This document shows, piece after piece, positions 776 through 18,326 of a DNA stretch of 64,000 nucleotides (within the stretch, counting starts at the first letter, position 1; each line of letters starts with the position of its first letter). A program made the translations under genes and the position numbers. Source of the DNA: Nanobdellota archaeon. Its GTDB lineage: Archaea; Nanobdellota; Nanobdellia; Pacearchaeales; GW2011-AR1. The DNA lies in contig JBBSYL010000010.1 of assembly GCA_038045265.1 (NCBI GenBank), positions 582 through 64,581 on the forward strand, written 5' to 3'. The notes below the pieces were generated by a model. The model saw nothing but the letters and a program-made list of their open reading frames with translations. It was not told where the DNA came from and did not search any database.

Positions 776-1420
776 ATGAATGAAGAGAAAAAATCTTGGA
801 GCGATTATGAACAGAACGATAAAGATAGAGAAGCACAGAAACAATTAGAATTTCATTTAAAATATGCAATGATAGTTATGCCTAATCTTTTAGCCCTTCC
901 AAGAATTAATCTTCCAAAATTGGATATATTTGTTCGTCCAATATTTTTTCCTTTCTTGATTTTAAATGAAATAGATAGAGAAGGTACAATATTAATTGAG
1001 TACTCTCAGGGCGAAGATGAGTTATGCCGATTTGAGTTAGCTCATGAAATAGGACATTTTTTCCATATGAATATTGCAAATGCACATCCTCCGGAAAGAA
1101 AAGGCAGGATAACTGAGAGAAAATACAGAATTCACAACTTCTATGAGTTTGGTGCTGAAATGTTTGCTCTTAGATATATAGAACATTTAGGAAATCTTGA
1201 GAGGTATTTACAAATAGATGAAGAATCGCATACAAAAAATTCCAGGCCTGGAAGTTCTCCTGATGTATATAGGAAAACAAGTCTATTCTATTTGTCTTTG
1301 TCTCTAGCCGAGAGAAATGGTATAACAAGATGGGCAATAACTGAGGACTACGAAGGATACAAAAAAGATATGGGAAAACATCCTCTTGCAAAACAAATTA
1401 GAGATATCGTTAATGATTAA
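776..1420 (+). CDS. putative HExxH zinc metallopeptidase-like protein (ImmA/IrrE-like?)
   Basis: Motif FELAHEIGHFFHM (HExxH) seen in translation. Family assignment is inference. Confidence 0.35.
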   Translation: MNEEKKSWSDYEQNDKDREAQKQLEFHLKYAMIVMPNLLALPRINLPKLDIFVRPIFFPFLILNEIDREGTILIEYSQGEDELCRFELAHEIGHFFHMNIANAHPPERKGRITERKYRIHNFYEFGAEMFALRYIEHLGNLERYLQIDEESHTKNSRPGSSPDVYRKTSLFYLSLSLAERNGITRWAITEDYEGYKKDMGKHPLAKQIRDIVND

Positions 1421-1421
1421 T

Positions 1422-1628
1422 TTATAGTCTAAAATTATACTTAGCTACATGAAGCTGTGAGTTAATTATTACATTCTGCTGTTTGCTCCATTCTTTATCA
1501 GATGTTGATTTCATATATTTAACCCAGAATTTTATAAAATTCCTTCTATCCTCTTCATTTGTTTCTCCAGGCTTCATAAAAATTCTTTTATTTTTTTCCA
1601 TATCCATGTTTTCTCTTCCTTTCTTCAA
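1422..1628 (-). CDS. small hypothetical protein (possibly spurious or a frameshifted tail)
   Basis: 68-aa ORF overlapping the 3' end of the upstream nucleotidyltransferase by 40 nt. No homology recognised. Confidence 0.15.
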   Translation of the reverse strand: MKKGRENMDMEKNKRIFMKPGETNEEDRRNFIKFWVKYMKSTSDKEWSKQQNVIINSQLHVAKYNFRL

Positions 1629-2199
1629 TGAGCAATTTGTATTTATTAATCTTGCTAAAGTCTATCTTATCTTTGAAGTATTCTTCTATATGCAAAGCAT
1701 CTTCCTCATCTTTCTTTGAACCTAGATAGTAGTTTTTGAAAGCTATGTGTCTCTCTAGAGAAGATATTTTTATGTCTCCTATAGAAAGCTCTACTGTAAT
1801 AAAATCGCTAAATGCTTCTTCATCCAATTTGTCCTTTGGAAACTTGACTTCAAAATTTGGGGCATAAGTGTTAATTTTTGCAAATCTTATAGCCAGTTTA
1901 TCGGTTAAATAGCTATATATTTCATTATCTTTTTCCGCATTCAAACACCAAAAATTGCTTTCTTTCAATTCTTTGTGAAGACTTGATAGCTCCTCCTTAG
2001 AAAGAGGTTTAATAAAAACATCAATATCTTCTGTGGATCTTGTTCTTCCAAGCAAAATTGATACATATCCAGAGATTACAACATATTCTGTATATTTTTC
2101 AAGTATTCTTAAAAATTCAACTGCAAATATGTCAAGTTCGCTTGGTATCCTATCAAGAATAATCTTATTGTTTTTTAATTCCATATAGTTTAAAGTCAT
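1588..2199 (-). CDS. Pol-beta superfamily nucleotidyltransferase domain protein
   Basis: Motif ISGYVSILLGRTRSTEDIDVFI (G[SY]...DxD). Start trimmed to an internal Met (2199 or 2184) because the six-frame ORF overlaps the rps2 C-terminus. Confidence 0.45.
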   Translation of the reverse strand: MTLNYMELKNNKIILDRIPSELDIFAVEFLRILEKYTEYVVISGYVSILLGRTRSTEDIDVFIKPLSKEELSSLHKELKESNFWCLNAEKDNEIYSYLTDKLAIRFAKINTYAPNFEVKFPKDKLDEEAFSDFITVELSIGDIKISSLERHIAFKNYYLGSKKDEEDALHIEEYFKDKIDFSKINKYKLLIEERKRKHGYGKK

Positions 2200-2245
2200 T
2201 GGCAATATAAATAATCTTCTGACTATTGTTCGATAGAAACAAATG

Positions 2246-3184
2246 TCATTTAGGCGGAACAAGATTATCCCAGCCATCAATGAAATCTTGAATAGGTGGA
2301 ACATCTACATGCAATTTTCTTTTTTCTACATATAATTTTGTAAGAAGATAGAAAATAATTCCAAGAGATTTTGCAGATTTATTATTTCCAGGAATTATTT
2401 GTGATATTCCTGCAGTGAAATTGTTTGTGTCACATACAGATAAAACATCTACTCCAATTCTATTTGCGTCCTGTAATGCGTTCTTATCAAGCCAAGAATC
2501 GCAGATAAATATTAAATTTGCTTCTGTAAAGTTTTCAAGATTTGTATTTGTAAGTATTCCTGAAGGATATTTCTTTGTGAAAACTCTTACTCCTGTAACT
2601 TCAGCGAATTTGTTTACTGCCTTCCAGCCAGCTTCTCTTTTACATATAAGAATAATTTCTTCTGGAGAAAACTTTGCAAGGTATTCTGCTCCTTCCTTTA
2701 ATTTATCATCTAATAAAGCAGTATTGAAAACTGCAAGACCATCAGCTCTTCTTCTATAAACGTATTTTCTCATGTCTGGAGTAATAACTCTTGTTCCCAA
2801 ATGGATTGATGATTTTAGATAATCTTCTATTGGAACTAATGTGTCTTTCTTCTCATCCTCTTCTGACCTGACCTTTTTCTTTAAATCTATATCTTTTGTT
2901 CCTTCTACTTTTCCCTCTAGTTTCTTTGCCTTTTCAAGAAGTTTTGCAAGTTTTGCTTTTCTATCGTCTCCAGCAGACTTATCTTTATCTGTTTTCTTCA
3001 CCTTCTTTTCTTTGCCCTCAATGAATTCTTCTACTTCCTTCTCTAATTTTTTCGCACCCTTCTCTACCTTTTCAACCATTTCTTCAGCATCTTTCTCTAT
3101 TTCTTTAACAGCATGTTCTACTACATGCTCTGCTTTCTCAAGGAAAGATTCTTTCTTCTTTGTTGTTTTTTTGTTCTCTGCCAT
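2246..3184 (-). CDS. rps2: 30S ribosomal protein S2 (uS2) with ~100-aa K/E-rich N-terminal extension
   Basis: C-terminal 200 aa align to uS2 (IHLGT..., DMRKYVY, VDVLSVCDTN). The N-terminus is a low-complexity K/E repeat. Confidence 0.9.
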   Translation of the reverse strand: MAENKKTTKKKESFLEKAEHVVEHAVKEIEKDAEEMVEKVEKGAKKLEKEVEEFIEGKEKKVKKTDKDKSAGDDRKAKLAKLLEKAKKLEGKVEGTKDIDLKKKVRSEEDEKKDTLVPIEDYLKSSIHLGTRVITPDMRKYVYRRRADGLAVFNTALLDDKLKEGAEYLAKFSPEEIILICKREAGWKAVNKFAEVTGVRVFTKKYPSGILTNTNLENFTEANLIFICDSWLDKNALQDANRIGVDVLSVCDTNNFTAGISQIIPGNNKSAKSLGIIFYLLTKLYVEKRKLHVDVPPIQDFIDGWDNLVPPK

Positions 3185-3318
3185 TTTTTCTTGTCCTATG
3201 TAATTTTTATATAAACAGCGCAGGGGTTTTGTCCAAGTTGTTTCAGTTGGTACCTGCTAATATCTAAAGTGATGAAGAAAGGGGTTTTTAAAGATTTGGA
3301 TTACTGCTAAATTAAATT

Positions 3319-3546
3319 TTATCCATATCTGTCTTCGTAGAAACTTGTTGCACCATAACATGATAATCTTCCTAAAGCATCGTCTCTATCCACGCCATTC
3401 TCTCCTTCAAGGGATTTTCCTCCAAATCTTATATCGCTTGCTAATTTGTCTAATTTCTTTTTATCACCCTCTGCTAATAATCTCCTTACTTCTTCTGTAT
3501 CTACCATTATTTTCCTGCAGAACTTTAGTTTAAAAATCTTCCTCAC
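3319..3546 (-). CDS. small hypothetical protein
   Basis: 75-aa ORF between the discoidin-like genes and rps2, same strand. No family recognised. Confidence 0.3.
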   Translation of the reverse strand: MRKIFKLKFCRKIMVDTEEVRRLLAEGDKKKLDKLASDIRFGGKSLEGENGVDRDDALGRLSCYGATSFYEDRYG

Positions 3547-4505
3547 CCATAACTAAACCCTGCAATCTTAAATTCAACTTCCGCGAGGTTGCCGTAATCA
3601 CGCACTCCAGATGTTTGTACAAATCTGACATATCTGGCTACTGCGATTTCTGGAAGCTTTTGTGTGATTATTCTTGGATATGTTACTTGAAAGTCTTTCA
3701 TTAGTGTGTCCCAGTCTTTTCTATTGTTGGATATTTCGATGTCCATGATTAATGGGACATCGAACTTACTGAAATACATGTCAAGAGATTTTATGCATTT
3801 CTGATTTCCTAGATCGAATTCAATCCATCTCGGATATGATTCATCTGCGTCTCCAAACCAATTACTTGAAAGGTTTTTATCAATTGCGTTTCTTGCAGGG
3901 AAATCTAAATCCTGGGAACTTGCTGTTGCAGAAATTGGAGATTCGAGAGAATAATCTCCGCATGAAACTGCAAGATTAGACATACCCGCTATTCCTCCTG
4001 ACTTTTCATTTTCTGAGACTCCTGCAAAGAAAGGAGTTCCAGGAGGAGTCGTTGTGCCTCCACCGCCTCCCGAAGGAGAAGTACATACTCCTTCAGAACA
4101 TGAGTATTCACAGGAGAATTCATCTTTTATGCTTACATTATTATTACAGTAATATTCATATAAGATTTTGTCTGTAAAGCAGGAGTCTGTGAAGTTAAGT
4201 TTTGTTCCTGTAGCAAATGTCTGGACTACTTTTCCTTTTGCGAAGTAATTTTTGCCTGAGTCTGAATCTACACATGAAGCAGTATAAGTTTTCTTGGTTT
4301 CATTTTTACTAGTTTCGTTTTTACTTGTGCTATTTACTGGGGGCTCTATTGGAGGTTCATCTCCACCATCCCCATATCCGTAACCGAGATTTTGAAAATT
4401 GAGGGAGACATGTCCGGTTGGTTTTGAAAGTGTTACTTGCAGTATTATAGCTACTATAAGAATAGCAACTAGCAGAAGAATTGTATAAATTTCTCTTTTA
4501 TTCAT
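3543..4505 (-). CDS. secreted/anchored discoidin (F5/8 type C)-like domain protein, paralog B
   Basis: N-terminal TM/signal. Cys-rich module CVDSDSGKNYF...CEYSCSEGVC. C-terminal domain with SNWFGDADESYPRWIEFDLG resembling discoidin/F5-8C. Paralog of the upstream ORF. Confidence 0.55.
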   Translation of the reverse strand: MNKREIYTILLLVAILIVAIILQVTLSKPTGHVSLNFQNLGYGYGDGGDEPPIEPPVNSTSKNETSKNETKKTYTASCVDSDSGKNYFAKGKVVQTFATGTKLNFTDSCFTDKILYEYYCNNNVSIKDEFSCEYSCSEGVCTSPSGGGGGTTTPPGTPFFAGVSENEKSGGIAGMSNLAVSCGDYSLESPISATASSQDLDFPARNAIDKNLSSNWFGDADESYPRWIEFDLGNQKCIKSLDMYFSKFDVPLIMDIEISNNRKDWDTLMKDFQVTYPRIITQKLPEIAVARYVRFVQTSGVRDYGNLAEVEFKIAGFSYG

Positions 4506-5352
4506 TTATTATTCCCTCCGGAAAGTCCGCAATATTTAACCTAATTTCTGCAAGAGTTCCAAATTCTCTCTTACCCGAAGTTTCGTAAAGTCTTATATAT
4601 CTTGCTAGAACAGTATCGGGCAATTCTACTCCTATTGTAGTAATATTCTCAAGCACTAGATCTTTCTGAAGGGTCTTCCATCTCACATTATCATTTGAAA
4701 CCTGCAAATCCAGACTTAATGGAAGATCTCTTTTGAATACATATAGATCTGCTTCCCTTATACATTTTCTCTCTCCTAAATCGAAGGCAATCCATTTAGG
4801 ATAGGATTCTGATAACTCTCCAAACCAGTGAGTGTTTGCATCAAAGTCTAAAGTATCTAATGCTGAAAAGTTTCCATAATCGCTAGAAGCAAAAGCATTT
4901 TTTGGAGTGGAAAATTTGTATTCTCCGCAGAATAGGGCTAAATCCTTTGCAATTAAAACTGAAATTTCCTCTTCTTGTGTTAAACAAATACCTTCAAAAC
5001 ATCCAAATTCACAATTTATCTGATTGGCAATGGAATTTTTGTCTTCACAGGAGTATTCCTGCAATCTTCCTGAGTCAAGACAGCTATCTGAAAAGAATTC
5101 AGTCTTGCCTGAATTATATATTATTTTAACATTCCCTTGGGAAAAATAATCTTTTCCTGAATCTGAATCTGTGCAAGATTTAGGAGAATCTTCTCCTTTT
5201 GATATTATTCTGCTACCGTTAAGGTAAATCCCTAGAACTATCAACAGAATAACTATCGCAGAGAGTGTGTAAATAAATGTTTTTTTAAATCTTTTAAAGT
5301 TTAATGGGCTTTTTCTCTCACTTTTCTTTACTGCATGAACCCTCTTTTTCAT
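4498..5352 (-). CDS. secreted/anchored discoidin (F5/8 type C)-like domain protein, paralog A
   Basis: Same architecture as 3543-4505 (CTDSDSGKDYF...; HWFGELSESYPKWIAFDLG). 8-bp overlap with the paralog. Confidence 0.55.
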   Translation of the reverse strand: MKKRVHAVKKSERKSPLNFKRFKKTFIYTLSAIVILLIVLGIYLNGSRIISKGEDSPKSCTDSDSGKDYFSQGNVKIIYNSGKTEFFSDSCLDSGRLQEYSCEDKNSIANQINCEFGCFEGICLTQEEEISVLIAKDLALFCGEYKFSTPKNAFASSDYGNFSALDTLDFDANTHWFGELSESYPKWIAFDLGERKCIREADLYVFKRDLPLSLDLQVSNDNVRWKTLQKDLVLENITTIGVELPDTVLARYIRLYETSGKREFGTLAEIRLNIADFPEGIINE

Positions 5353-5408
5353 TAGTGAAAAAATGGGAAAGTAATATATAAAGATGCCGAAAAGATGTAT
5401 AAAGAAAA

Positions 5409-5786
5409 TTAATTTTCTTCGCTACTTGCTTGATCAGCTACTTCTGTGTCTGTTTCTTCTTCATTTGCAACAAGACCAAGTTGTTCAGCGTCTTCTGCAA
5501 TTTCTTTTTCTACTTCTTTTTCCTTGGCTTCTAATTCCTCATCTGAAACTTTTTCTTCTTTAACTGCTATTAATTTCTCTTTTCTTTTTCTTGGCATAGG
5601 TCTGCTTATTGTTATTGGTAAGGTGTTTTTATTGAACTCAAGCTCTGCTATTTTGAGAGAGTCATATCTCAACTTCTCCATCTCTTCTTTTGAAATCTTA
5701 AGAAGCAATGGTGCATCCATAGCTATCTGCAAAGCACGAGCTCCAATGATTCTTGCTATTTCGTATTTTGTGAATTGGTGTTCCAT
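5409..5786 (-). CDS. rpoK: DNA-directed RNA polymerase subunit K/Rpo6 (Rpb6 homolog) with acidic C-terminal tail
   Basis: KYEIARIIGARALQIAMDAPL matches the Rpb6/RpoK signature ([21 protein letters not shown]). Downstream of rrp42 on the same strand. Confidence 0.8.
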   Translation of the reverse strand: MEHQFTKYEIARIIGARALQIAMDAPLLLKISKEEMEKLRYDSLKIAELEFNKNTLPITISRPMPRKRKEKLIAVKEEKVSDEELEAKEKEVEKEIAEDAEQLGLVANEEETDTEVADQASSEEN

Positions 5787-5798
5787 AGTGAATAGGAT

Positions 5799-6614
5799 TT
5801 ACAAAAACTTTTTAAGTCTTTCGTTAAGCTCTTTGTACTTTTCAGGGAGTATAGACATCATTTTCTCTATCTCTTCTTGAGTGAATGGTACTGGGCCTGT
5901 TTTTTGGCAGGAGTTTATCATTAGCTTTCCTGACCAGTGTGAAAGACCAAAATTAATTTTTACATCTGTGCTCTCAGCTTCCTCTCTTGTAGGGTCAAGG
6001 AAAATAGCATCTCCAAGCTTGTAGAATGTAATTGAAAGGGGCAAGCAGTCCTTTAGAACAGGGATTTGTTTTTTTGTTCTATTCTTGTAATCCGACACTC
6101 CTGATTCTTTTATACCCGGTATATTTGCATTCCTTATTGCTGCTGTCGCTGCAATGCATGCGGCATCAATTAAATTTCCATCGTCATTAATTGGATAAAG
6201 GTCTACCATAACTGTCCAGACTTTTTCTCCAGGTGTGACAACAAGTTCTTTAAGATTTATCATTCCCGACTCTCTGATTGCTCTATCAACTAATCTTGGA
6301 AGTTCTATCCCATCAAATTTTGGAGGGCCTTGCTCAAATCTTGGAGAAGCTAAAGGCAATAATTCTGCAGAAACCATAAGATTTCCTTTATCTGGTGAAT
6401 CTGGATAAGGTGCATCAAGAACCATTTTTACGCCTGCAATAACTTCAGTTTTTCCAAGCTTGACTCTTGCTGAACCTTCTGCTTTATTCGAGACATCGAA
6501 ACTTACCTCAAATTTTCTAAATTCATCTATCTTCCTTCCGTCAAATCTTTTTCCTTCTGAAAGAAGCTTTCTCATGTGATCTACAGTTATATTTGATGCG
6601 TCCATTGAACTCAT
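5799..6614 (-). CDS. rrp42: exosome complex RNase PH-like subunit Rrp42
   Basis: RNase PH fold, position after rrp41, 271 aa. N-terminus FDGRKIDEFRKFEVS. Confidence 0.85.
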   Translation of the reverse strand: MSSMDASNITVDHMRKLLSEGKRFDGRKIDEFRKFEVSFDVSNKAEGSARVKLGKTEVIAGVKMVLDAPYPDSPDKGNLMVSAELLPLASPRFEQGPPKFDGIELPRLVDRAIRESGMINLKELVVTPGEKVWTVMVDLYPINDDGNLIDAACIAATAAIRNANIPGIKESGVSDYKNRTKKQIPVLKDCLPLSITFYKLGDAIFLDPTREEAESTDVKINFGLSHWSGKLMINSCQKTGPVPFTQEEIEKMMSILPEKYKELNERLKKFL

Positions 6615-7309
6615 TGTCCTGCTACCTCCTTAAGAGCTTTTTTCTGTTCTTCATAAACTTCATTACATGCTTTATTGGCAAGTACAAGAGCTTCCTTTAT
6701 TCTCTGTGGGGGAATCTTTCCATCTAATTGAAGAAGAGTAAACTGGTCTGTGTCTGCAATTTTTGCAACAGGTATATCTGATGGTCCTTCTCCACCTTCA
6801 AAATCCTCTTCTGCTTTTGTTAGGTCAACAACTAATTCCTCATCCTGCTTACCTATAGCAACAGAGCATATTAGACTTCTCATAGGTATTCCAGCGTGTG
6901 CTAGAGCCATTGAAGCAGCATTTATTCCTGCTGTTCTTGTTCCTGCATCGGCTTGAGTTATGTAAACTTGAACGTCTATTACTGTATTTGGAAACTCTTT
7001 CAAATCTAAGACAGGCATCAAAGCGTGCTCAATCATCTTTGAAATTTCTTGAGATCTTCTGCTTGGTCCAGGTCTCTTCCTGTCATCTACTGAGAAAGAC
7101 ATCAAGTCATAATTAACTCTCAAAATAGCAGTTTCTGGATTCTGCATGTGTTGTGGATGCAAAAGTCTAGGACCATAAACTGCTGCAATTGCAATTGTGT
7201 CTCCGAATGCAAACATTGCAGAACCATCAGCATTAGGAATTATTCCTACTTTTGCTTTAATTTCTCTGAGCTCATCCACTTTTCTTCCGTCCTTTCTTTT
7301 GAATGTCAT
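6611..7309 (-). CDS. rrp41: exosome complex exonuclease Rrp41
   Basis: RKDGRKVDELREIKAKVGII..ADGSAMFAFGDTIAIAAVYGP is the Rrp41 N-terminal signature. 4-bp overlap with rrp42. Confidence 0.9.
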   Translation of the reverse strand: MTFKRKDGRKVDELREIKAKVGIIPNADGSAMFAFGDTIAIAAVYGPRLLHPQHMQNPETAILRVNYDLMSFSVDDRKRPGPSRRSQEISKMIEHALMPVLDLKEFPNTVIDVQVYITQADAGTRTAGINAASMALAHAGIPMRSLICSVAIGKQDEELVVDLTKAEEDFEGGEGPSDIPVAKIADTDQFTLLQLDGKIPPQRIKEALVLANKACNEVYEEQKKALKEVAGQ

Positions 7310-8031
7310 CAGGATAACATCTCCTCGACTTTTTCTGTCAAACCATCAACTGAGACATTTTCTGAAATGAATTCAATTATTTTTCTTGCCTTTATCTCTT
7401 CTTCTGAAGTGTTGCCTTTTATCCAAACCCAGCCATTCTGGCCAATTGTAATATTGCATTGCGTCTTTTCTTTAATCATACCAACCATGCTTCCTTCTCT
7501 GCCTATTACTCTTGGAACGGTGTTTGGGCCTATTCTAAATATGAATCCATGCTCTAATTTTCCTAGTCCTCTTGATTTTATTGATAGATCTATTCCCCTC
7601 TTATTAATTGCCCAGATCTTTGCGACTATTGTGTCTCCAATATCTAAAAATTGAGTCATTTCGCTTTTGTTTATGAAGTGGGGGCATTCTTCTATAGGTA
7701 AAAATGCAGATGATGCATAATCAATATCTAAAACCCAGCCATTAAATGTAACATTGGTAACTCTGCCTATTACAACATTATTCCTTCTTGGAATGAATGC
7801 TCCAGTTATAGCAATTACTTTTATTACTCTTCCAGCTTCCTCCGCTAGACCGAATCTTGAAGCAACAATTTCATTTCCTATACGCCTCGCACCTTCGCTT
7901 GGTAAGTAATCTTCTCCAGAAGCAATGATCTCTCCAGGTACAACTATTTTTCTCTTTTTCTGAACTGATTCAGATAATTCAACATTTTGTTCTTGGGCTT
8001 CGTGTGCCTCTGATAATTTTCTTTCCATCAT
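7309..8031 (-). CDS. rrp4: exosome RNA-binding subunit Rrp4 (S1 + KH)
   Basis: S1 domain followed by a KH domain (VIGREGSMVGMI). First gene of the rrp4-rrp41-rrp42 array. Confidence 0.85.
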   Translation of the reverse strand: MMERKLSEAHEAQEQNVELSESVQKKRKIVVPGEIIASGEDYLPSEGARRIGNEIVASRFGLAEEAGRVIKVIAITGAFIPRRNNVVIGRVTNVTFNGWVLDIDYASSAFLPIEECPHFINKSEMTQFLDIGDTIVAKIWAINKRGIDLSIKSRGLGKLEHGFIFRIGPNTVPRVIGREGSMVGMIKEKTQCNITIGQNGWVWIKGNTSEEEIKARKIIEFISENVSVDGLTEKVEEMLS

Positions 8032-8089
8032 TTTAAACAGACAAGAAGTAATGATAATTTTCCCTTGTCTCTAATCTTTAAAACTTAGA

Positions 8090-8243
8090 CAAATATTGGT
8101 TTATAAAGGTTTTGTTTCAAAACCTTTAAGTTTCATTTCTCACGAAACTTCAACTATAAAGCTTTCAGAGAAAGCTTTAACATTCACTTCTTACGAAGTT
8201 TCATGTATAAAGGTTTTGATTTAGGATAATAAACCAATATTTG
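8090..8243. repeat. ~154-bp imperfect palindrome with 15-bp perfect terminal inverted repeats (caaatattggtttat / ataaaccaatatttg) and nested hairpins
   Basis: Read directly. The left half and the reverse complement of the right half share caaatattggtttat, caaaaccttta, gaaacttc and aaagctttc. Internal palindromes are aaggttttgtttcaaaacctt and aaagctttcagagaaagcttt. Confidence 0.5.
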
Positions 8244-8245
8244 AC

Positions 8246-8488
8246 CTATCTTCTCTTTATCTTCTTTAAATTTCTAGCCAGGATGGCCTTTCTTTCCATT
8301 AATCTTGTGACTTTAATTATTCGTTTACCGGATTTACTTGGATTTCTTATTGTCTCTCCCGCTTTTGCTTTGATTATTTTACTTATTAATGTAAGGGGTA
8401 TATTTTCTCCCAACTTTATACTGAGCATTTTATGTAAGCTTCCTTTTCTGTTCTTTCTAATTGCTTTTTGAATCCAGAGTTTTTTCAT
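8246..8488 (-). CDS. small highly basic protein (possible nucleic-acid-binding or ribosomal protein)
   Basis: 80-aa K/R-rich ORF co-oriented between SBDS and the exosome operon. The antisense ORF is Phe-rich hydrophobic, as expected from AT-rich antisense. Confidence 0.35.
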   Translation of the reverse strand: MKKLWIQKAIRKNRKGSLHKMLSIKLGENIPLTLISKIIKAKAGETIRNPSKSGKRIIKVTRLMERKAILARNLKKIKRR

Positions 8489-8527
8489 TGCCTGTCAAAG
8501 AATTAAAGACTTTTATATTTTTTGAGA

Positions 8528-9205
8528 TTAAGATTTCTCTGCGAGATCTTGGCTCTGAACTGCTCCATGAGTTATCTTGTTAAGCTTGTCATAAAAATCT
8601 ATCTGCATTCCTGCAGGAATATTTAGAATACACTCCAATGCGCCATTTGCCAACCAGTCTTCTGACTCTTTATAATCTTTCAAAAGAGAATAAGTCTGAG
8701 CAGTATATTGGGCAGGGATTGTAATTTTTATTCTTTTCAAATCTATTTTTATTGGAATTACTTTTTGTAAACTCTGAACTATTCCAGAAATCTGCTGTTC
8801 AGCAGGTTTATTGTCTATGTTAATGTGGGCTTCTTTTAATGCTCTCTGAATTCTTTCTTCTGTGTAAGGTCTGCCGTGTTGGTCTGAGCAGTTTTTTATT
8901 AATATGGTTATTACTTGTTTTATTTTTGCTTCTCTTTCTGAATCTCTGAATTCTTGGGTTTTCTGAACTTCCCCTTTAGTAATTATGCGTTTTGCTATTT
9001 CATAAAAATCTGTTGTATTAAATGAATTTTCCAATTCTGCGTTTGATGCAACCATGCCTTTATTTACATCTGTAAAAACTTTTGGAACATCTACTGCGGA
9101 CATAATATCTCCCTTCCCTTCTCTAACTTTTAATGCTGCATCTAAATCTACATGGATTTCAAAATGCTTTCCATTTACCTTTATTCTTGCAACAACTTTT
9201 GCCAT
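8528..9205 (-). CDS. sdo1: ribosome maturation protein SDO1/SBDS
   Basis: MAKVVARIKVNGKHFEI... FYSH-domain N-terminus. 225 aa. Classic neighbour of the archaeal exosome superoperon. Confidence 0.85.
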   Translation of the reverse strand: MAKVVARIKVNGKHFEIHVDLDAALKVREGKGDIMSAVDVPKVFTDVNKGMVASNAELENSFNTTDFYEIAKRIITKGEVQKTQEFRDSEREAKIKQVITILIKNCSDQHGRPYTEERIQRALKEAHINIDNKPAEQQISGIVQSLQKVIPIKIDLKRIKITIPAQYTAQTYSLLKDYKESEDWLANGALECILNIPAGMQIDFYDKLNKITHGAVQSQDLAEKS

Positions 9206-9229
9206 ACCATAAAAATAAGATAGACTTAT

Positions 9230-10285
9230 TTAAAGATTTGTATGGCCAATCTTTATCTCTTTCTCTATAGCGGAAAATACTTCTTTATTCGAGAAAGTGA
9301 ATTTTTTCAGATTTTTTTCATATAATGGAATTTTTGAAACGAATTTTCTAATAATCGATTTATCAATTTTACTTGAAGAGAGACCGAAATTAGCTTTTCC
9401 AACATAAAATGCGTTGACTTCCTGTTCTGTCTGCCCAGATAGGGGAATGCATAATACTGGCTTTTTTAAGTAAATTGATTCACTTAACGTGCTCATTCCT
9501 GCGTTAGAAACAACTGCTCTACTAGAAGCTAAATCTGCTGCAAAGTCTTCAGCGCTAAAATTCTTTATTTTTAGATACTTACTTGACTTCCTAGATAATT
9601 TTCCGTAAACTATGCACTTTTGCTTTGATTTTTCTAAAACTTCAAGAATAGAATCTCCGCCTAAACTTAGGTAAACTAGAAAATGATTGCCTGCCTTTTC
9701 CTTCTGTTTCTCAACTAATTTTCTTACTACGGGCGGAACGATAATAGCATTTTTACTTAAAATTTTTGGGTGAAAGAAACTTGTAATTATTTTCTTTCTT
9801 GGAAACGGACACATCAAATGCACTATCAGTTTGTATAGCGAAACTTCGGATAAATTTTTTATTTTTCCGGCAGATGTGTCTGTTACTATGTGCTGATTAT
9901 CAAAACTTATAACAGGAATTCTGAGAATAAGTCCAGAATATGCTGTCAAAGGTTCAAAATCTGTGATAATAACTTTTGGTCTGTTTAATATGCATGAAAT
10001 AATTACTTTTAAGAAAGACAATAAAATAAGTGGTGAAATAAGAAGATTATAAAGAAAGGTTTGAATGTATTTTATTTTCCCATCTCTTGTGATAAAAGAC
10101 AAATAATTTATGCTTTTTACTTCTCCAAATTTTTTAAGATAATCTTTTGCTTTCCCGCCTGTAAAAACAGATACATCGTGGTTCTTTTTTAGTTCTCTAA
10201 TCACCTCTGCACTTCTCATCGCATGGCCTAAACCTTCTCCATTTATGCCGTAAAATATTTTCATCCCCTGATGAAGAAAGAACAT
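9230..10285 (-). CDS. GT-B glycosyltransferase (MurG-like / MJ1255-type UDP-glycosyltransferase)
   Basis: N-terminal GINGEGLGHAMRS motif typical of MurG/GT1-like enzymes. The true start may be the internal Met at 10264. Confidence 0.55.
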   Translation of the reverse strand: MFFLHQGMKIFYGINGEGLGHAMRSAEVIRELKKNHDVSVFTGGKAKDYLKKFGEVKSINYLSFITRDGKIKYIQTFLYNLLISPLILLSFLKVIISCILNRPKVIITDFEPLTAYSGLILRIPVISFDNQHIVTDTSAGKIKNLSEVSLYKLIVHLMCPFPRKKIITSFFHPKILSKNAIIVPPVVRKLVEKQKEKAGNHFLVYLSLGGDSILEVLEKSKQKCIVYGKLSRKSSKYLKIKNFSAEDFAADLASSRAVVSNAGMSTLSESIYLKKPVLCIPLSGQTEQEVNAFYVGKANFGLSSSKIDKSIIRKFVSKIPLYEKNLKKFTFSNKEVFSAIEKEIKIGHTNL

Positions 10286-10317
10286 AATTTAAATATATTG
10301 TAAAACTAGCATGATAA

Positions 10318-12174
10318 ATGAAATTTAATCATCTAAATATTGCAATCTTAATCGGGCTGGCTCTTTCGCTGTGTACTGTTTTTGCTGTTACTTTAAGTGA
10401 TGCTTGGACAATAAGAAACATATATAACGTTTTTTACTTCGCATTTCTAAACCTCACCTTGCTTTCATTCAATGCATTTTTGTTTGGAAAGAAAAGAAGC
10501 TTCATACCAGAATCTGTGAGAAAGCCATTAAGGATTACTTTTATTCTTGCTTATTCTGCTATCTACCTCATAGCAACATTTACTTATGCCACAACAGGAC
10601 AAGTTCCTAGAATACAAACTTTGATTTTCTTATATGGCATAGGCCCAATTGTTGCATCTATTGCTGTACTGGTCTTTCTAGCTCTGTGTTTTGGGTTGCT
10701 TGTATTATTTATACATAAAAAGACCTCTCTAAAAGATATCAGGGGACATACTAGCAGAAAAATTAAACTTTTGCTTATAGCAAACATTATCTTACTCTTT
10801 CTGACCATTGTAGTAAACACGCAGTTTCTACAGATAAATATCCCCTTAGGAATATGGGAAAGAGAACTTGTTGCATATGATGAAGATAGACCTGTTTTGG
10901 AAGATTTATTTAATGCTAGTTTAAAAAATGAAAAATATAACGTCGTATTTATTCTACTTGAATCTGTATCTGCTGAAAGACTTGGAGTTTATGGATATGA
11001 TAGAAATGTTACGCCTTATATGGATTCTTTAGCACAAAAAGGATTGATTTTTGAAGAAGCATACTCTACTTCAACCCATTCAGATTATGCTCAACCTGGC
11101 CTTTTATCTTCTAGATATATATTTTCCAGCAATACAAGAACAGATTACTCTCTTGGCGGATCAGTAACAAATTATAAAGGAGATGCCCCAAGAAAATTTG
11201 TTTGGGATGTCTTCAAAGAAAATGGATATAAAACTGGATACTTCTCTTCTCAGGACGATAGATGGCAGGGGATGGATGATTATCTTAATTATAAAACCCT
11301 CGACTCTGCTTCTTATTCTCTTAGCGATGGAGAAACAGATTATGGAACGGGTTTTGGAAAAAAAGATTATGATCACAAAACTGCAGATAAGGCCATAAGC
11401 TGGATGAATAATGTTTCAAAAGAGAAATTCTTTGTTTATCTTAACTTTCAGGCAACCCATTATCCAAATGTTTATCCTGAAAATATTTCATTCTTCAAAC
11501 CTGACAGCAATCCTCCTTCCGTAGTAGTTAAGGCAGACGAAGAAGGCATAAATAGATTTGACAGCTCGTTGAAATATGTTGATGAGCAAGTTGGAAGAAT
11601 ATTAAAACACCTTGAGGAAAATGGATTACAAAATAAAACTGTGGTCGTTATCACTTCGGATCATGGACACGATCTTCTAAACAGACATAATGTACAAGGG
11701 CATGGAAACAGCATATATAATGAAGAATTATTAGTTCCAGCAATAGCATTTGTTCCAGGATACAAACATACAGTTATTAAAGAAAGAGTTAGCCAGATAG
11801 ACTTTGTTCCAACCCTTATAGATTTATTTGGATATCCTATGCCTTATGAATTCCAGGGAGAGATAATGAAAAAAGGAAGACCAATTTATTTTGTTGCCCA
11901 ATCTCATAAGTATTATATTGGTCTTGTAGATAAAGAGATAAAGATAATTCTTAACATGAACACTAAACAACTTGAAGCGTATAATTTAACAGATGATAGC
12001 AGAGAGATAAAAAATATAAGATCTGTTGCAAATAATGATAAAATATTAAAGCTTCTTTTATGGAGGCATTGTCAAATAGAATATTATAAAAAAGAAAAAT
12101 GGAAGGAAAATAAGCAAGATAGATGCAATATAAACAATAATTTTAAGATCAATCCAGAGTTCAGTAAAGCTTAA
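10318..12174 (+). CDS. membrane-anchored sulfatase/LtaS-like phosphotransferase (alkaline phosphatase superfamily)
   Basis: Five N-terminal TM helices, then a sulfatase-type domain (ESVSAERLGVYGYDRNVTPYMD, ITSDHGHDL). Confidence 0.75.
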   Translation: MKFNHLNIAILIGLALSLCTVFAVTLSDAWTIRNIYNVFYFAFLNLTLLSFNAFLFGKKRSFIPESVRKPLRITFILAYSAIYLIATFTYATTGQVPRIQTLIFLYGIGPIVASIAVLVFLALCFGLLVLFIHKKTSLKDIRGHTSRKIKLLLIANIILLFLTIVVNTQFLQINIPLGIWERELVAYDEDRPVLEDLFNASLKNEKYNVVFILLESVSAERLGVYGYDRNVTPYMDSLAQKGLIFEEAYSTSTHSDYAQPGLLSSRYIFSSNTRTDYSLGGSVTNYKGDAPRKFVWDVFKENGYKTGYFSSQDDRWQGMDDYLNYKTLDSASYSLSDGETDYGTGFGKKDYDHKTADKAISWMNNVSKEKFFVYLNFQATHYPNVYPENISFFKPDSNPPSVVVKADEEGINRFDSSLKYVDEQVGRILKHLEENGLQNKTVVVITSDHGHDLLNRHNVQGHGNSIYNEELLVPAIAFVPGYKHTVIKERVSQIDFVPTLIDLFGYPMPYEFQGEIMKKGRPIYFVAQSHKYYIGLVDKEIKIILNMNTKQLEAYNLTDDSREIKNIRSVANNDKILKLLLWRHCQIEYYKKEKWKENKQDRCNINNNFKINPEFSKA

Positions 12175-12227
12175 ATACGGCAAACACAAGAAAATTCCAA
12201 CAACACGAAGAGGTTTCTAAAAAGAAA

Positions 12228-12953
12228 ATGGATATGCCAACAGAAATGCAACATCAGGCCATGGGCTATGACAGAGCCGCGACAATGTTTTCTCCTGATG
12301 GACATTTATTACAAGTAGAATATGCTGAGAAAGCTGTAAAATCTGGCAGTTCAAGTATCGGCTTGGCGTGCAAAGATGGAGTAGTTATAGTAGCTGATAG
12401 AAGAATAAGAGACAATCTTGTTGCTCCTGAATCAATGAATAAGGTTTATGAAGTTGATGAACATATTGTTGCAAGCAGTGCTGGAATATTAAGTGATGCA
12501 AGAATATTGATAGAGCAGGCACAAATATTGGCGCAACAGAATAGAATAACTTTTGATTCTCCTATAGAACCAATTTCAATAATAAAGATGATTGCCGATA
12601 AGAAACAGATGTTTACGCAATATGGAGGAGTTAGGCCGTATGGTGTTGCAATAATAGTGGCAGGAGTACATAGAGGTAAATCTCATTTGTATGCTTCAGA
12701 TATGGTTGGTAATTATCTTGCTTATAGAGCTAATGCAATTGGAGAAAATGATGAAAAGGTAAAGGAAGCACTAAGAAAAGAGTTTAATGAAAATATGACA
12801 ATTGAGGATAGTATAAAACTATCGTTGAGAATATTCAAACAAGTGCTTGACAAGAACTTTGATATAAGCAGATTTGATGTTGGGTATATTAAGATAGGAG
12901 ATGCTAAGCTTGTTAGAATGCATGGCGATGAATTGAAGAGATTTGTTAAATGA
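12228..12953 (+). CDS. psmA: proteasome subunit alpha
   Basis: YDRAATMFSPDGHLLQVEYA signature. 241 aa. Confidence 0.95.
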   Translation: MDMPTEMQHQAMGYDRAATMFSPDGHLLQVEYAEKAVKSGSSSIGLACKDGVVIVADRRIRDNLVAPESMNKVYEVDEHIVASSAGILSDARILIEQAQILAQQNRITFDSPIEPISIIKMIADKKQMFTQYGGVRPYGVAIIVAGVHRGKSHLYASDMVGNYLAYRANAIGENDEKVKEALRKEFNENMTIEDSIKLSLRIFKQVLDKNFDISRFDVGYIKIGDAKLVRMHGDELKRFVK

Positions 12954-12980
12954 AAATTTATTAGTTAATAATATAAATAG

Positions 12981-13769
12981 TTGCTTCTTTATTCTTTCAT
13001 GTATCATAAACTTACTGCTGAAGATATAAAAAAAGAGTTGGGTTTGCCTAAAAATTATAAAGTAGATGCATTTGCAATATATGGCGGGGGGGATGCTAAG
13101 AGATATAAAAGAAAGTTCTTGAGCGCTTTGGGAGATTTAAATTACAAAATAGAAAAATTACCAAATTCATTTATTAGAGAAATTTTAAGCATAAGGGTTA
13201 AAAATAAAAGAATATGGTTCGCGGTGGAATATGGTGGCGCTAGGCTCTCTGAGTATATTCACTTTGCTTCTATTTTTGGATCAAAGAAAAATATCTTAGT
13301 TGGAAAATGCGGTGGACTTCAGAAAAGCCAAACAGTTTTTGGGGTAATAGTTCCGGATTCCTCTTATTCTACTGAAAGTAGTTGTCATATGTATTTAAGA
13401 CAAAAACAAGATAATCTTTTTGAATCAGATAAAACGCTATCTGAAAGAATATTCCATAGAATGAAAAAAGAAGGGATAAAAGTCTACAGAGGGAAAACTA
13501 TTACCTGTCAAGCAATGATGGCTGAAACTTGGGAAGATGTTTTGTCTTGGAGTAGGCAAGGATTTCTAGGTGTTGAAATGGAGGCTGCCACTTTGTTTGC
13601 AGTATCGAACCATTTTAAAGTACCCGCCACCGCGATTCTCCAAATAGCAGACAATTTAATAGAAAAAGAAATAGTAAGCAGTAAAAGTTATTTGAAGAAA
13701 AAAGCCAAATTAAATCATCTTAGAAAATTTTTCCTGAAAGTTGTTTTAGATGAAATATTTAATATTTAA
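12981..13769 (+). CDS. purine nucleoside / MTA phosphorylase (PNP_UDP_1 family, DeoD-like)
   Basis: GVEMEAATLFAVSNHFKVPATAILQIADN matches the DeoD-type motif. 262 aa. Confidence 0.7.
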   Translation: MLLYSFMYHKLTAEDIKKELGLPKNYKVDAFAIYGGGDAKRYKRKFLSALGDLNYKIEKLPNSFIREILSIRVKNKRIWFAVEYGGARLSEYIHFASIFGSKKNILVGKCGGLQKSQTVFGVIVPDSSYSTESSCHMYLRQKQDNLFESDKTLSERIFHRMKKEGIKVYRGKTITCQAMMAETWEDVLSWSRQGFLGVEMEAATLFAVSNHFKVPATAILQIADNLIEKEIVSSKSYLKKKAKLNHLRKFFLKVVLDEIFNI

Positions 13770-14191
13770 GGCAGTTTAAACAATTTCCTGAAGATTATGC
13801 TTCCAACTATTGAAAATCCAATATACCACCACATCCAGACAGGGAAGAAAAATTTAACTGTCTCTAAAGGTGTATCTGTAAACGCTTTCTTCATAAATCC
13901 GAATAATAAAATTATTGGAAGGAAAGTTATTAGCATGGGTTTTAGAGAATGTTTCATCATCTCGCTAGCTAAGGGGAGCATTTCTTTATTCAATTCTAGA
14001 GCTTTTTCGTGTCTTCCTGCCTGTTGATGTTCTTTTATCTGCAGTTGAATCGCCTTTTGCTTTTCTTTTATGGCTCTCATTTTATCTTTATCAAGAACAA
14101 AATAGTTTATGAGAGAAATGAAAAATGAAATAAGTAAGGCAAATCCTATTATGCTCAAATAGGGATAACTCTGAATTAATTCATATACCAT
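13766..14191 (-). CDS. DUF106/EMC3-Oxa1-like membrane protein
   Basis: Small multi-TM protein in the conserved archaeal position downstream of secY. Family call is inference from position and hydropathy. Confidence 0.45.
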   Translation of the reverse strand: MVYELIQSYPYLSIIGFALLISFFISLINYFVLDKDKMRAIKEKQKAIQLQIKEHQQAGRHEKALELNKEMLPLASEMMKHSLKPMLITFLPIILLFGFMKKAFTDTPLETVKFFFPVWMWWYIGFSIVGSIIFRKLFKLP

Positions 14192-14240
14192 ATTGTGTGA
14201 AAGGAATAGATGTTTTTAAAGGCTATGAATTTAAATAAAA

Positions 14241-14723
14241 TTATTCATGATAGATTCTAATTAATTGAAAAGTCCCCGACTCACTCATATCTTTAAATGT
14301 ATCAACAGGTACTCTCCATTCCCCCTCATATTTTGTGCCTGCATCTGTTGATTTTCCAAAGTAATGGATTGGAGATCTATTAATTATAAAGGAATACATC
14401 TTTTCTGAATATACTTTGCAAAAGTTTATATGCTCGGGTCTTATAACTCCATTTCTTATCTCACCTATACAACCTATCTCGAAAATCAATCCTTCCAGGA
14501 TACCTTCTTTCAATTTTCTAAGAGACTCTGCATCCTGTGCAATCACGAATGGAGTTTGACTTTTTAATTCTGGTTCTGCCTTTCTGCCTTGAAAATATAA
14601 ACCTTCAAATGATACTGTTAACCCTCTGGCTTTTGCATTCCTTCTAGCTAATTCTAAAAAATAATTTTGTGCACTTTCAGAATTAATTTCTGCTACAAGC
14701 CTACGATGGGCCTCATCAATCAT
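14241..14723 (-). CDS. hypothetical protein occupying the adenylate kinase slot after secY
   Basis: 160 aa, no P-loop, no recognisable family. Positioned where adk normally sits. Confidence 0.35.
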   Translation of the reverse strand: MIDEAHRRLVAEINSESAQNYFLELARRNAKARGLTVSFEGLYFQGRKAEPELKSQTPFVIAQDAESLRKLKEGILEGLIFEIGCIGEIRNGVIRPEHINFCKVYSEKMYSFIINRSPIHYFGKSTDAGTKYEGEWRVPVDTFKDMSESGTFQLIRIYHE

Positions 14724-14775
14724 GAAAGTTAGTGTTAATTATTTACTTTTAAGTATTATTGTGATTAAAGAAGAT

Positions 14776-16176
14776 TTATCCCATGAATCTTCTTAATGCG
14801 GGATGCATGTCTACTGCGTGCTGATGAGCTATATTTTGATACATCTGGTAGGCAATCATTACTGCGAGAAGAATAGCTGTTCCAGAGGTTATGGCGCCTA
14901 GAATATCTGTTAATGCCGCTAGAACTCCAATAGCAAGACCGCCCATTATTGTTAGTGGCATAACATATCTAGATAGAACTGATTCAAGAACTCTTTCATC
15001 TTTTCTGAATCCTGGAATTTGAAGACCTGAATTGATTATCTTTTTTGCTTGGCCTGCTGCATCTGTGCCAGAAGTTTTAACCCAAAATACAGCAAATAAA
15101 GCTGAGAAAATCATATAGAAGAGTAATTGAGAAATAACTTGGACTACTTGAATACCTTGTATGCTTCCACGAATTACTGCCTGAAGAAGGTTAACACTTG
15201 TTCCACTACCCCCTATCCAGAATGCAAGACCAGAAGTTGGAACTCCTTGTGAAAATGCGCCCATAAATGTTGGATGACCAAGCCAATTCTGAAGAAGGCT
15301 TCCGAATAAAGAAACATTTGCTGCAAGAGCTGCAACCAATATAACTGGGATAGTTGAAGCATATATAAATTGCAAAGGCCATTTGACATTATATCCTCGT
15401 AATCTATCATAACTTAAAGGAATTTCAACTTTCAAACTTTGTGCCCAAACTACTAAGAGAAATATTCCTATTGTGACAAGAATTGTGAGCAATGCAAATA
15501 TTAACTCTGTTGGGGCTCCATTTATCAGTGATTGAATTATCACAAAAAATCTACCCGTACATGGATTTCCGTCAGCAAGACAGATAGAGACTGAGCCATT
15601 TTGAATATCCATAAATTGGAAGAATCCTGTGAAGACGCTTCTTGCAACTCCTGCAAGGATAAATAGGGAAACTCCTGAACCAAATCCCCATTTCTGAGTT
15701 ATTTCGTCCATATACATTATTGCTATGCCTCCAAGGATGAGCTGGAAAATAACTACTCCTGCATAGCCGGAAACTGCCTGTATTCCACCCATTAATACGA
15801 AAACTACTGATTCAAATAAAATAAAAAATAGAACTCCTATTTTTTGAATTCCTTGAAAAAGCTTTTTTCCTTCTTCAGTATGAGTATTTAGATTGAGGAT
15901 TCCTGAACCAACAAGCAATTGAAGAATGATAGATGAAGTGACGATAGGACCAATACCCAAACTGATGATGCTTCCAAAATCTGTAGCAAGAATGAGCTGG
16001 AGAAATTCGAATCTTTCAAGAAATCCGGCAGTTACTCCATAAAGTCTGACATTGGCAAGGATGAAAAAAGTAGTTAGAACGATTAGTGTCCACTTCAACT
16101 TCTCATTGAAACTGACTTTCTTTTCTACTGGGTGCTTTACCTCTGGAATATTATACAAGATGTCCTGTAATGCCAT
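14776..16176 (-). CDS. secY: preprotein translocase subunit SecY
   Basis: 466 aa, 10-TM pattern. Last gene of the ribosomal spc-like cluster after L15. Confidence 0.95.
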   Translation of the reverse strand: MALQDILYNIPEVKHPVEKKVSFNEKLKWTLIVLTTFFILANVRLYGVTAGFLERFEFLQLILATDFGSIISLGIGPIVTSSIILQLLVGSGILNLNTHTEEGKKLFQGIQKIGVLFFILFESVVFVLMGGIQAVSGYAGVVIFQLILGGIAIMYMDEITQKWGFGSGVSLFILAGVARSVFTGFFQFMDIQNGSVSICLADGNPCTGRFFVIIQSLINGAPTELIFALLTILVTIGIFLLVVWAQSLKVEIPLSYDRLRGYNVKWPLQFIYASTIPVILVAALAANVSLFGSLLQNWLGHPTFMGAFSQGVPTSGLAFWIGGSGTSVNLLQAVIRGSIQGIQVVQVISQLLFYMIFSALFAVFWVKTSGTDAAGQAKKIINSGLQIPGFRKDERVLESVLSRYVMPLTIMGGLAIGVLAALTDILGAITSGTAILLAVMIAYQMYQNIAHQHAVDMHPALRRFMG

Positions 16177-17848: not shown

Positions 17849-18326
17849 TTTGTATTTTCTGCTTTACTTTAGTAAAGACTTCTCCTCCTTTGCCCTTTTT
17901 AGATATTTCCTCCAATGATGGAAGTATTTCTTCTGAATGGGGGATAGAGATTCCTGCATCTAAAATTCCCTTAAGAAGTGCGTAGATTCTTGACTTTTCT
18001 ATATTTCTGTACAAACCAATATCTAGCACAGCAAATTTTACTTTTGATTTTGCAACATTACCCAGCATCAAACCTGTAAGGTAAGATGCTTGAATGCTCT
18101 TAAGGCTTCCAGATAAATCTACAGGCCATCCTTTCGAAAGAAGGGCTTTTGAAGTTAAACCATACAAAACTTTGTCCTGTGCTCCTTCACTTTCAATTAT
18201 CTGCGCAAGCATATACTGATTCGACTTTCTTATTACTAATCTGGGTTTTCCAGACTTAAGAAGATTTAATCTAAGACGATAATCTGTCTTTCCTTCTTTT
18301 CTTCTTCTTTTTAAAGTTCTAGACAT
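17841..18326 (-). CDS. rpl18: 50S ribosomal protein L18 (uL18)
   Basis: RRRKEGKTDYRLRLNLLKSGKPRLVIRKSN signature. Confidence 0.85.
   Translation of the reverse strand: MSRTLKRRRKEGKTDYRLRLNLLKSGKPRLVIRKSNQYMLAQIIESEGAQDKVLYGLTSKALLSKGWPVDLSGSLKSIQASYLTGLMLGNVAKSKVKFAVLDIGLYRNIEKSRIYALLKGILDAGISIPHSEEILPSLEEISKKGKGGEVFTKVKQKIQNG

Follow-up and report, generated by a model that had tools for sequence, protein, structure and literature searches.

Short self-complementary sequences between prokaryotic genes belong to several described classes. Some Correia elements of Neisseria carry or create promoters, and the BOX elements of pneumococci have sub-units that can be repeated in tandem. To our knowledge, almost nothing is known of the promoters, non-coding elements or mobile DNA of DPANN archaea, which are not cultivable alone. 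Here we describe a palindromic element at positions 8090-8243 of a 64-kb stretch of the genome of a Nanobdellota archaeon (Pacearchaeales; contig JBBSYL010000010.1, positions 582 to 64,581, all of it called "the window" below), directly upstream of the exosome operon, Rrp4-Rrp41-Rrp42(-RpoK). The initial annotation had treated this palindrome as a single 154-bp unit. It is instead a composite in which the repeated entity, present twice in tandem, is a module of ~52-65 nt with two hairpins and the layout T - hp1 - T' - loop - T, where T is a box composed of a B recognition element and TATA box (BRE/TATA), T' is an inverted copy of T, hp1 is the first hairpin, and T', loop and T together form the second, hp2. 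We think it probable that the element before Rrp4 represents two tandem copies of a low-copy, gain- and loss-prone repeat family that regenerates promoters.

The module shares many traits with Correia and BOX elements and with MITEs (miniature inverted-repeat transposable elements; prokaryotic examples are reviewed in PMC10969869): it is short, non-coding, intergenic, self-complementary, dispersed, polymorphic, and flanked by short direct repeats. Unlike these, it has no terminal inverted repeats (TIRs), its flanking repeat of 6-17 nt is the host promoter, and one of its hairpins is made from the host promoter and an inverted copy of it; its copy number is low, it has no known partner transposase, and its host is a DPANN archaeon. 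Other traits recall repetitive extragenic palindromic (REP) sequences, bacterial interspersed mosaic elements (BIMEs) and IS200/IS605-like elements. The ~27-nt imperfect hp1, with its conserved unpaired bases and freely covarying stems, has the character of a structure recognised in single-stranded DNA (ssDNA), and the module appears to insert after a fixed short TTTATA, lacks TIRs, appears to be lost seamlessly and is extragenic, often lying just past stop codons. However, the two ends of IS200/IS605 elements share one hairpin type, whereas hp1 and hp2 are unrelated to each other, and unlike REP sequences the module has no GTAG-type signature, no RAYT/TnpA nearby, and a copy number far below theirs. 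Among the Pfam calls of the loci we fetched there is no Y1 transposase domain, and the IS6-like and TnpB genes in these loci, including the TnpB locus L106, have no hp1-like ends.

Promoters that recur have also been described. The intergenic repeats of halovirus HF2 place similar short promoter-containing sequences upstream of unrelated genes (PMC8707807), and promoter reuse in prokaryotes has been described under the name of 'mobile promoters' (PMC3575422). The functional-looking archaeal promoter of our module likewise recurs before unrelated genes, but those repeats are by their descriptions promoter copies, whereas the module adds a two-hairpin architecture, an inverted duplication of the resident promoter, and TATA-precise filled and empty sites. 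Differential RNA sequencing of Pyrococcus furiosus has revealed bidirectional BRE-TATA-BRE promoters, in which a single TATA box is flanked by two BREs (PMC6640164). The back-to-back BRE/TATA boxes of hp2 resemble these, as does the TATA spacing of the array (~52 nt, against a start spacing of ~50 nt), but hp2 holds two complete inverted BRE/TATA copies in a perfect hairpin, is accompanied by a second conserved hairpin, and belongs to a unit polymorphic for insertion and deletion. In the literature searched we found no account of TATA-box-embedded two-hairpin modules in DPANN archaea, and this promoter-copying repeat is apparently new to description.

Two head-to-tail modules on the Rrp4 promoter

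The geometry first reported for the palindrome is accurate. Its perfect 15-bp inverted repeats (8090-8104 and 8229-8243) are 15 nt long, 100% complementary and 124 nt apart, and the nested perfect hairpins are present as TAAAGGTTTTG-ttt-CAAAACCTTTA (8104-8128) and TAAAGCTTTC-aga-GAAAGCTTTA (8157-8179), together with an inner inverted pair that matches at 12/12 positions (8117-8128 / 8208-8219). The comparison of folding with shuffled controls that had been called for gives -55.6 kcal/mol (z = -10.6) for the minus strand and -50.2 kcal/mol (z = -8.6) for the plus strand of a 164-nt region; 0/200 dinucleotide shuffles fold as well, and the pattern TAAAGSTTT-N2-8-AAASCTTTA, found twice in the element, occurs in none of the shuffles. 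The key to the element, which had been overlooked, is a 51-nt tandem direct repeat (8120-8165 vs 8171-8216, 78% identity). An 87-kb contig from the Hainich H51 groundwater well carries the same DNA. The element sequence is 100% identical in three other assemblies, and a fourth assembly differs only outside the element; its recurrence in four independent assemblies means that it is no assembly artefact.

Read on the gene strand (minus), the composite order is b' - T1 - hp1 - [Tc' loop Tc] - hp1 - [T' loop T2] - b (Table 1). The two modules, U1 and U2, stand head to tail, with TTTATA boxes at 8211, 8160 and 8107, and hence periods of 51 and 53 nt. The T sequence CAAAACCTTTATA lies at 8218..8206 and 8114..8102, with an inverted copy at 8128..8118, and because the core bases of T1 match T2 at 13/13 positions, the pair forms a direct repeat that flanks the two-module insert. 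Between them, the 3' arm of the U1 hp2 plus TA makes a middle BRE/TATA-like box, GAAAGCTTTATA (8166..8155), which doubles as the T1 of U2. Covariance-model matches cover U1 at 8213..8171 (63-68 bits) and U2 at 8162..8120 (60-67 bits), and a third, weak match (18-22 bits, E 0.03-5) falls on the U3 remnant. The b' arm, which starts 2 nt past the ORF80 stop codon, is matched at none of the other module loci.

The right side of the palindrome is native to the operon. We compared it with 80 related Rrp4 loci (L001-L080) from GTDB species representatives, at 58-73% protein identity, whose upstream regions share a conserved box (..RAAAnnTTTWWAAACC..) at ~66-101 nt from the ATG and, after it, a conserved hairpin in the leader. 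A promoter position weight matrix (PWM) trained on 58 of these boxes (training median 20.8 bits, minimum 8.4) scores 17.9 bits at 8117..8096, the third-best site in the window, and the TATA box of T2 lies ~75 nt before the Rrp4 ATG, within the range of the relatives. From conservation and position we take the right 15-bp 'TIR', and likewise the proximal hairpin's right arm, to be the native promoter plus the sequence just after it, and T2 is predicted to be the working BRE/TATA promoter of the exosome operon. Searches with the whole element (BLASTN-short, nhmmer) returned only the self-match from the window and nothing element-like from the 80 related Rrp4 loci, which are also devoid of covariance-model copies of the module. 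Within the window the 15-bp TIR has one chance-level match at up to 2 mismatches, and X-box searches stayed at chance level with no further copy. No target-site duplication borders the 154-bp unit, whose flanks read ..cttaga on one side and acctat.. on the other.

The pairing of hp1 is evident from an alignment of 11 non-redundant copies, in which 97% of cells are paired and 6/9 pairs have changed on both sides (28 such cells). Its covariation score is 0.74 as against 0.24 in shuffles, with 0/500 shuffles reaching 0.74, and slid controls gave zero double changes. In form it is a short imperfect extragenic palindrome of 9 bp in two stems with an invariant unpaired GAA..GA (G12 A13 A14 and A30 in all copies, G29 in 10/11). 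As a direct rather than inverted repeat, these conserved purines point to a single strand, RNA or ssDNA, folded with gene-sense polarity, and speak against the binding of duplex DNA by a dimeric protein; counting G-U pairs to assign the strand was uninformative, with one wobble per strand. A degenerate promoter copy was rejected as the source of hp1 (no PWM match), as were, by inspection, kink-turn, bulge-helix-bulge and guanidine-II readings, whose loop and bulge geometry does not fit, and an integron attC site, given that no RYYYAAC/GTTRRRY cores are apparent and there is no integrase.

The stems of hp2 are of another kind. All are perfectly Watson-Crick, with no G-U in ~64 bp, which looks like templating or palindrome correction at the DNA level rather than drift at the RNA level. 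Hairpins of this type with arms of at least 10 nt number 19 in 846 kb where 0.3 are expected, and they occur at 3/61 related Rrp4 promoters against an expectation of 0.06; no hp2-like hairpin was found at the other strong promoters of the window. The structured RNA considered in the initial annotation stays a candidate: the hp1 pairing is strongly backed by covariation, but the element belongs to no Rfam family, hp1 would fall between a TATA box and its expected start, and the hp2 arms are DNA-templating-like. Rfam gave 0 matches at gathering score in 64 kb, only chance-level matches (E > 1) in 7900-8600, and none in related module loci; tRNA scans found nothing.

Table 1. Positions of the array components and of adjoining features in the window
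Feature	Position	Strand	Description
b'	8229..8243	minus	perfect inverted copy, CAAATATTGGTTTAT, of 15 nt covering the Rrp4 TATA box's 3' half and 10 nt beyond it
T1	8206..8219	minus	distal BRE/TATA-like box TCAAAACCTTTATA; promoter PWM only 6.3 bits
U1 hp1	8180..8206	minus	ACAT-GAA-ACTTC-GTAA-GAAGT-GA-ATGT; 4-bp outer stem, unpaired GAA/GA, 5-bp inner stem, GNRA loop
U1 hp2	8157..8179	minus	TAAAGCTTTC-tct-GAAAGCTTTA
U2 hp1	8129..8155	minus	AGTT-GAA-GTTTC-GTGA-GAAAT-GA-AACT; paralogue of U1 hp1 with compensatory changes
U2 hp2	8104..8128	minus	TAAAGGTTTTG-aaa-CAAAACCTTTA; 3' arm is the Rrp4 promoter, 5' arm a perfect inverted BRE/TATA copy
T2	8096..8117	minus	native BRE/TATA promoter of Rrp4-Rrp41-Rrp42(-RpoK), AAACAAAACCTTTATAAACCAA
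b	8090..8104	minus	ATAAACCAATATTTG; pairs with b'; 3' part of TATA and stretch to the expected transcription start
U3 remnant	8072..8109	minus	T2, then TTAAAGATTAG 26 nt on; module-like spacing without hp1
Rrp4 5' untranslated region hairpin	8039..8070	minus	AGACAAG..ATTATCATTA..CTTGTCT; outside the palindrome, in the same promoter/leader region
ORF80	8246..8488	minus	80-aa K/R-rich lineage-specific gene between SBDS and Rrp4; array begins 2 nt past its stop codon

A dispersed family with filled and empty promoters

Scanning metagenomes for a pattern derived from the repeated unit yielded four informative loci, which have in common a ~65-nt module consisting of a TTTATA box, hp1, and then TTAAAG opening hp2, whose 3' arm, extended by TA(A), gives a BRE/TATA box as far from the next gene as a promoter would be. 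The recurring unit begins ..TTTATA-hp1 and ends ..AATCTTTATA, and has no terminal inverted repeat. Covariance models, built from 5 and then from 11 copies, find exactly two strong copies in the window (60-68 bits) plus the weak remnant over the real promoter and nothing more there, even with filters off; they find further copies in L081, L084/86, L085, L089, L090 (two), L091, L092, L094 and L097. A TTATA-type box stands directly 5' of hp1 in 10/11 aligned copies (TTTATA in 9, CTTATA in L090b). All copies are intergenic. The genes downstream, on Pacearchaeota-like contigs, encode RFC-S, an L41e-like protein of 38 aa, an intron-containing tRNA and membrane proteins; one copy (L089 16626-16683) sits between convergent genes, with no gene to promote. 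Density ranges from one locus (two tandem copies) in the 64 kb of the window to 2-3 loci per ~20 kb near RFC-S in other genomes. The module belongs to a low-copy, dispersed family of Pacearchaeota/Woesearchaeota-like DPANN archaea.

Orthologous RFC-S loci, taken from ten genomes, display filled and empty states of the same promoter. It is filled in L086, L091 and L090 and empty, with conserved flanks, in L089 and L099, where the site reads ..caacaatatttata joined to atcaatttt..; the empty site has a single TTTATA, the filled one a TTTATA on either end of its insert. The promoter is also filled in L097 and empty in L095 and L096, despite 96% nucleotide identity in RFC-S. The L097 insert is 65 nt long and flanked by a 17-nt direct repeat, GTATACAAATCTTTATA, and the 5' arm of its hp2 is an inverted copy of the same promoter. 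The direct repeats around the module vary in length (TTTATA in L086 vs L089, 17 nt in L097, 13 nt in the window), the repeat being the promoter itself. On the RFC-S tree filled and empty loci are intermixed, so that at least 3 gain or loss events are needed. At the L41e promoter there are full modules in L090, L092 and L094, hp2 only in L091, decayed tandem copies in L086, and none in L089, L099 or L095-97.

These comparisons also reveal how hp2 is composed. In two independent loci its 3' arm is the plain promoter of empty-site relatives; with the 3' arm pre-existing, it is the 5' arm that was made anew, as a perfect inverted copy (10-15 nt) of the promoter already there. Orthologous RFC-S copies can differ in hp1, which is A-type in L086 (its 22-nt core differs by one base from that of L081) and B-type in L091 and L090, and different types at an orthologous site point to exchange between copies or re-insertion. 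Of the four candidates named at the outset, the MITE-like mobile element comes nearest in spirit, as the inner unit is one of a dispersed family whose copies vary by insertion and deletion; a 154-bp unit with 15-bp TIRs is not what repeats.

Several observations concern the module loci and their surroundings. A third class of first hairpin, TTCAAATC-TTTG-GATTTGAA followed by TGGGY, occurs in the same T - hairpin - T' - loop - T layout before HerA-like, unknown and RpoK genes (L095 ~13760-13821 and ~18092-18154, L021 ~6266-6317), which indicates that the architecture is more general than the hp1 sequence. The 38-aa L41e-like gene (MKRSSRRWKKKGQMRWKWQRKRLKKEKHRRKMHRMRSV), uncalled but conserved just upstream of RFC-S, is a second module hot spot; it is found at L086 9705-9821 and in L089, L090, L092, L094-L097 and L099. 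A tRNA gene with an intron of ~120 nt (L084 6329-~6510, equivalent to L086 ~8484-8665; acceptor GCCCCTG...CGGGGGCA) escaped both ARAGORN and Rfam; no tRNA or Rfam match is detectable in the 64-kb window, and intron-containing tRNAs may be hidden there. Downstream of RFC, a HerA/DUF87-like ATPase gene carries a LAGLIDADG-domain intein in L089 (13548-15968) and L090 (13721-16327), and in no other relative.

Gene neighbourhood and leader structures

The gene order on the minus strand is SBDS (9205..8528), ORF80 (8488..8246), the palindromic element (8243..8090), Rrp4 (8031..7309), Rrp41, Rrp42 and RpoK, which bears out the location upstream of the exosome operon given initially. Across the relatives (L001-L080) the SBDS-Rrp4 spacer measures 35 to 3187 nt, a spread that marks this junction of the exosome superoperon as a hot spot for inserted genes. 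ORF80 has no homologue in the 80 related Rrp4 loci; it is a real gene family nonetheless, with 36 homologues. Its relatives elsewhere are surrounded by many tiny ORFs, together with a NUMOD3 protein (L105) or TnpB (L106), and these contexts suggest a viral or mobile-element origin. We considered and rejected the possibility that ORF80 and the element travel as one cassette, since the ORF80 homologues in L105 and L106 have no module after them. A 42-aa plus-strand ORF within the element has no Pfam match and was treated as spurious.

The Rrp4 leader hairpin (window 8039-8070; ~-50..-15 from the ATG in L001-L080) has arms that vary yet remain complementary. Its loop motif, ATTAC(R/T)ATTA, is present in 41/68 loci and has no Rfam match, and a second ATTACAATTAC-like copy adjoins the start codon in 27/68 Rrp4 loci. 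The bulges of this hairpin shift position between loci, and an ungapped register test gave no support. We regard it as a candidate for a new cis-regulatory leader of the exosome operon in Pace/Woesearchaeota. At the SBDS promoter of the window there is a short hairpin, TAAAGATT-ggccataca-AATCTTTA (9255..9231, minus), ~25 nt before the SBDS start, which is probably leaderless; hairpins like it also stand before SBDS in L040, L066 and L077.

Proposed mechanism and competing explanations

The reading we favour, a promoter-regenerating repeat family, is as follows. The module sits exactly in TATA boxes, between direct repeats (6-17 nt) of the TATA/BRE box, and rebuilds a complete promoter at its 3' end, so that the downstream gene should still be expressed. 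Individual promoters gain it, swap it, let it decay and lose it precisely. It would be an element acting at the DNA level, propagating into, or growing out of, consensus TATA boxes by steps that may pass through hairpins in single strands: the promoter might be copied by fold-back or template switching with hp1 as the nucleus, or alternatively a hairpin-binding enzyme might recognise the invariant unpaired GAA..GA. A tandem pair such as that at Rrp4 could arise because each insertion regenerates the TTTATA target, and loss would proceed by recombination between the flanking T repeats; since these direct repeats allow recombination, precise loss is to be expected. The effect on the host is likely neutral to mildly useful, as the promoter would be preserved, and Rrp4 is set apart from the newly inserted ORF80 by a dyad-symmetric stretch that holds two additional TATA-like boxes with a period of ~52 nt.

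Archaeal transcription starts ~25 nt from the TATA box, and sense and antisense starts lie ~50 nt apart (PMC6640164). By that geometry the start predicted for T1 would lie beyond hp1, and every TATA box in the array would be close to the one predicted for its neighbour, so that probably only one is productively occupied at a time. The b' arm might, speculatively, be the remnant of an earlier promoter hairpin whose TATA box took module insertions. A bolder extension, which we put forward only tentatively, is that the module represents a new archaeal class of mini-element, one that would home to TATA boxes and make copies of the promoter it meets there, or else a host promoter switch or insulator in which T' pairs with T1 or T2. 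As a mini-element, hp1 would nucleate, or be recognised in, a single-strand reaction that lays down inverted and direct BRE/TATA copies; the promoter would always be tailored to the host gene, and tandem re-insertion and seamless excision would both be possible.

This favoured reading must be tempered by several points. Copy number is low, with one locus in the 64-kb window even with filters off, and the non-redundant copies behind the family, drawn from metagenomic contigs, number only ~12. The module has no transposase or recombinase linked to it and no autonomous element either, and none with matching ends was found in the ~1.6 Mb of fetched loci; nor were there module copies on the viral contigs scanned (3 scans, 103 loose-pattern matches, 80/103 loci tested, 0 passing the covariance model). 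The RFC-S pattern also fits one ancient gain followed by several deletions, so that true transposition stays a candidate. Compensation in hp1 at orthologous copies, and the invariant GAA..GA, could equally mean that the host selects for a working hairpin. The module model does not account for the perfect 15-nt b'/b pair, and the use of T1, Tc and T2 as promoters, like any role in RNA, is a prediction.

Selection of that kind is the core of an alternative in which the module is a cis-regulatory or insulator device of the host, kept in situ: hp1 would be a protein-binding hairpin, in the RNA of upstream read-through or in ssDNA of the open complex, and hp2 would sequester the promoter. Such a device would end or stabilise the 3' end of the upstream mRNA and define or boost the next promoter in very short spacers. 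We consider it less likely but viable, and much is in keeping with it. GAA..GA is invariant while both stems covary, also between orthologous copies; in the A-type copies the gene-sense strand carries GNRA loops; 5/7 site types have, 2-70 nt upstream, the end of a co-oriented gene; the L089 copy between convergent genes has no gene to serve as promoter for; and promoter-embedding hairpins are enriched 60-fold across the clade and found at housekeeping genes. By the standard geometry (PMC6640164), however, hp1 would be placed between T1 and its start site, and would not be transcribed from T1. Nor is there any RNA-strand signature, with 0 G-U in ~64 hp2 pairs and one G-U per strand in hp1. A device kept by selection also sits poorly with the absence of the module from 80 orthologous Rrp4 loci, its repeated loss at RFC-S and L41e, the persistence of decayed hp1 copies (L084b, L086 L41e, L097), and the position of the L41e copies between divergent genes.

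Three further explanations take the palindrome more nearly at face value. Archaeal regulators often bind dyads near BRE/TATA, and palindromes immediately upstream of, and overlapping, the promoter would suit an exosome-specific operator or upstream activating site, with a dimeric transcription factor on double-stranded or cruciform DNA. We nevertheless find this very unlikely, and the cruciform operator of the initial annotation is not supported: the 80 related Rrp4 promoters are without the element, the module stands also at RFC-S, L41e, tRNA and membrane-protein genes, no other X-box copy exists in the window, and covarying stems with a conserved GAA..GA in direct repeat are the opposite of a dimeric site on duplex DNA. 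A classical 154-bp MITE with 15-bp TIRs, inserted upstream of Rrp4, would account for the perfect inverted repeats, the MITE-typical size, the intergenic site and a neighbour, ORF80, of mobile-element flavour; but with no target-site duplication, a TIR without other copies beyond one chance-level match, a whole unit that is single-copy, a right 'TIR' that is conserved native promoter plus downstream sequence, and a recurring inner 52-65-nt module without TIRs, it is hard to credit. To a replication origin, with dyads like origin recognition boxes around an AT-rich stretch, we give practically no weight. The dyad-symmetric repeats do lie in an AT-rich intergenic region, and hp1 may loosely resemble mini-ORB dyads (ORB, origin recognition box), yet the 17 ORFs scanned against Pfam (776-16176) are exosome, ribosomal, proteasome or SecY genes with no Orc1/Cdc6 match, GC skew just follows the gene strand, and modules occur at several unrelated promoters per genome, two of them 1.5 kb apart in L084. 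Our best reading is that the element is neither a classical MITE, nor an origin, nor a known RNA, nor an operator specific to the exosome.

If the promoter-regenerating reading is right, the family would constitute a new route for duplicating, moving and rewiring promoters in archaea, and would account for the odd 'palindromes' that genome scans flag before housekeeping genes. For annotators it carries a warning that such dyads are not origins, operators or classical MITEs. The covariation-supported hairpin with its invariant purine loop offers a testable handle, as either a protein-binding site or a folding nucleus.

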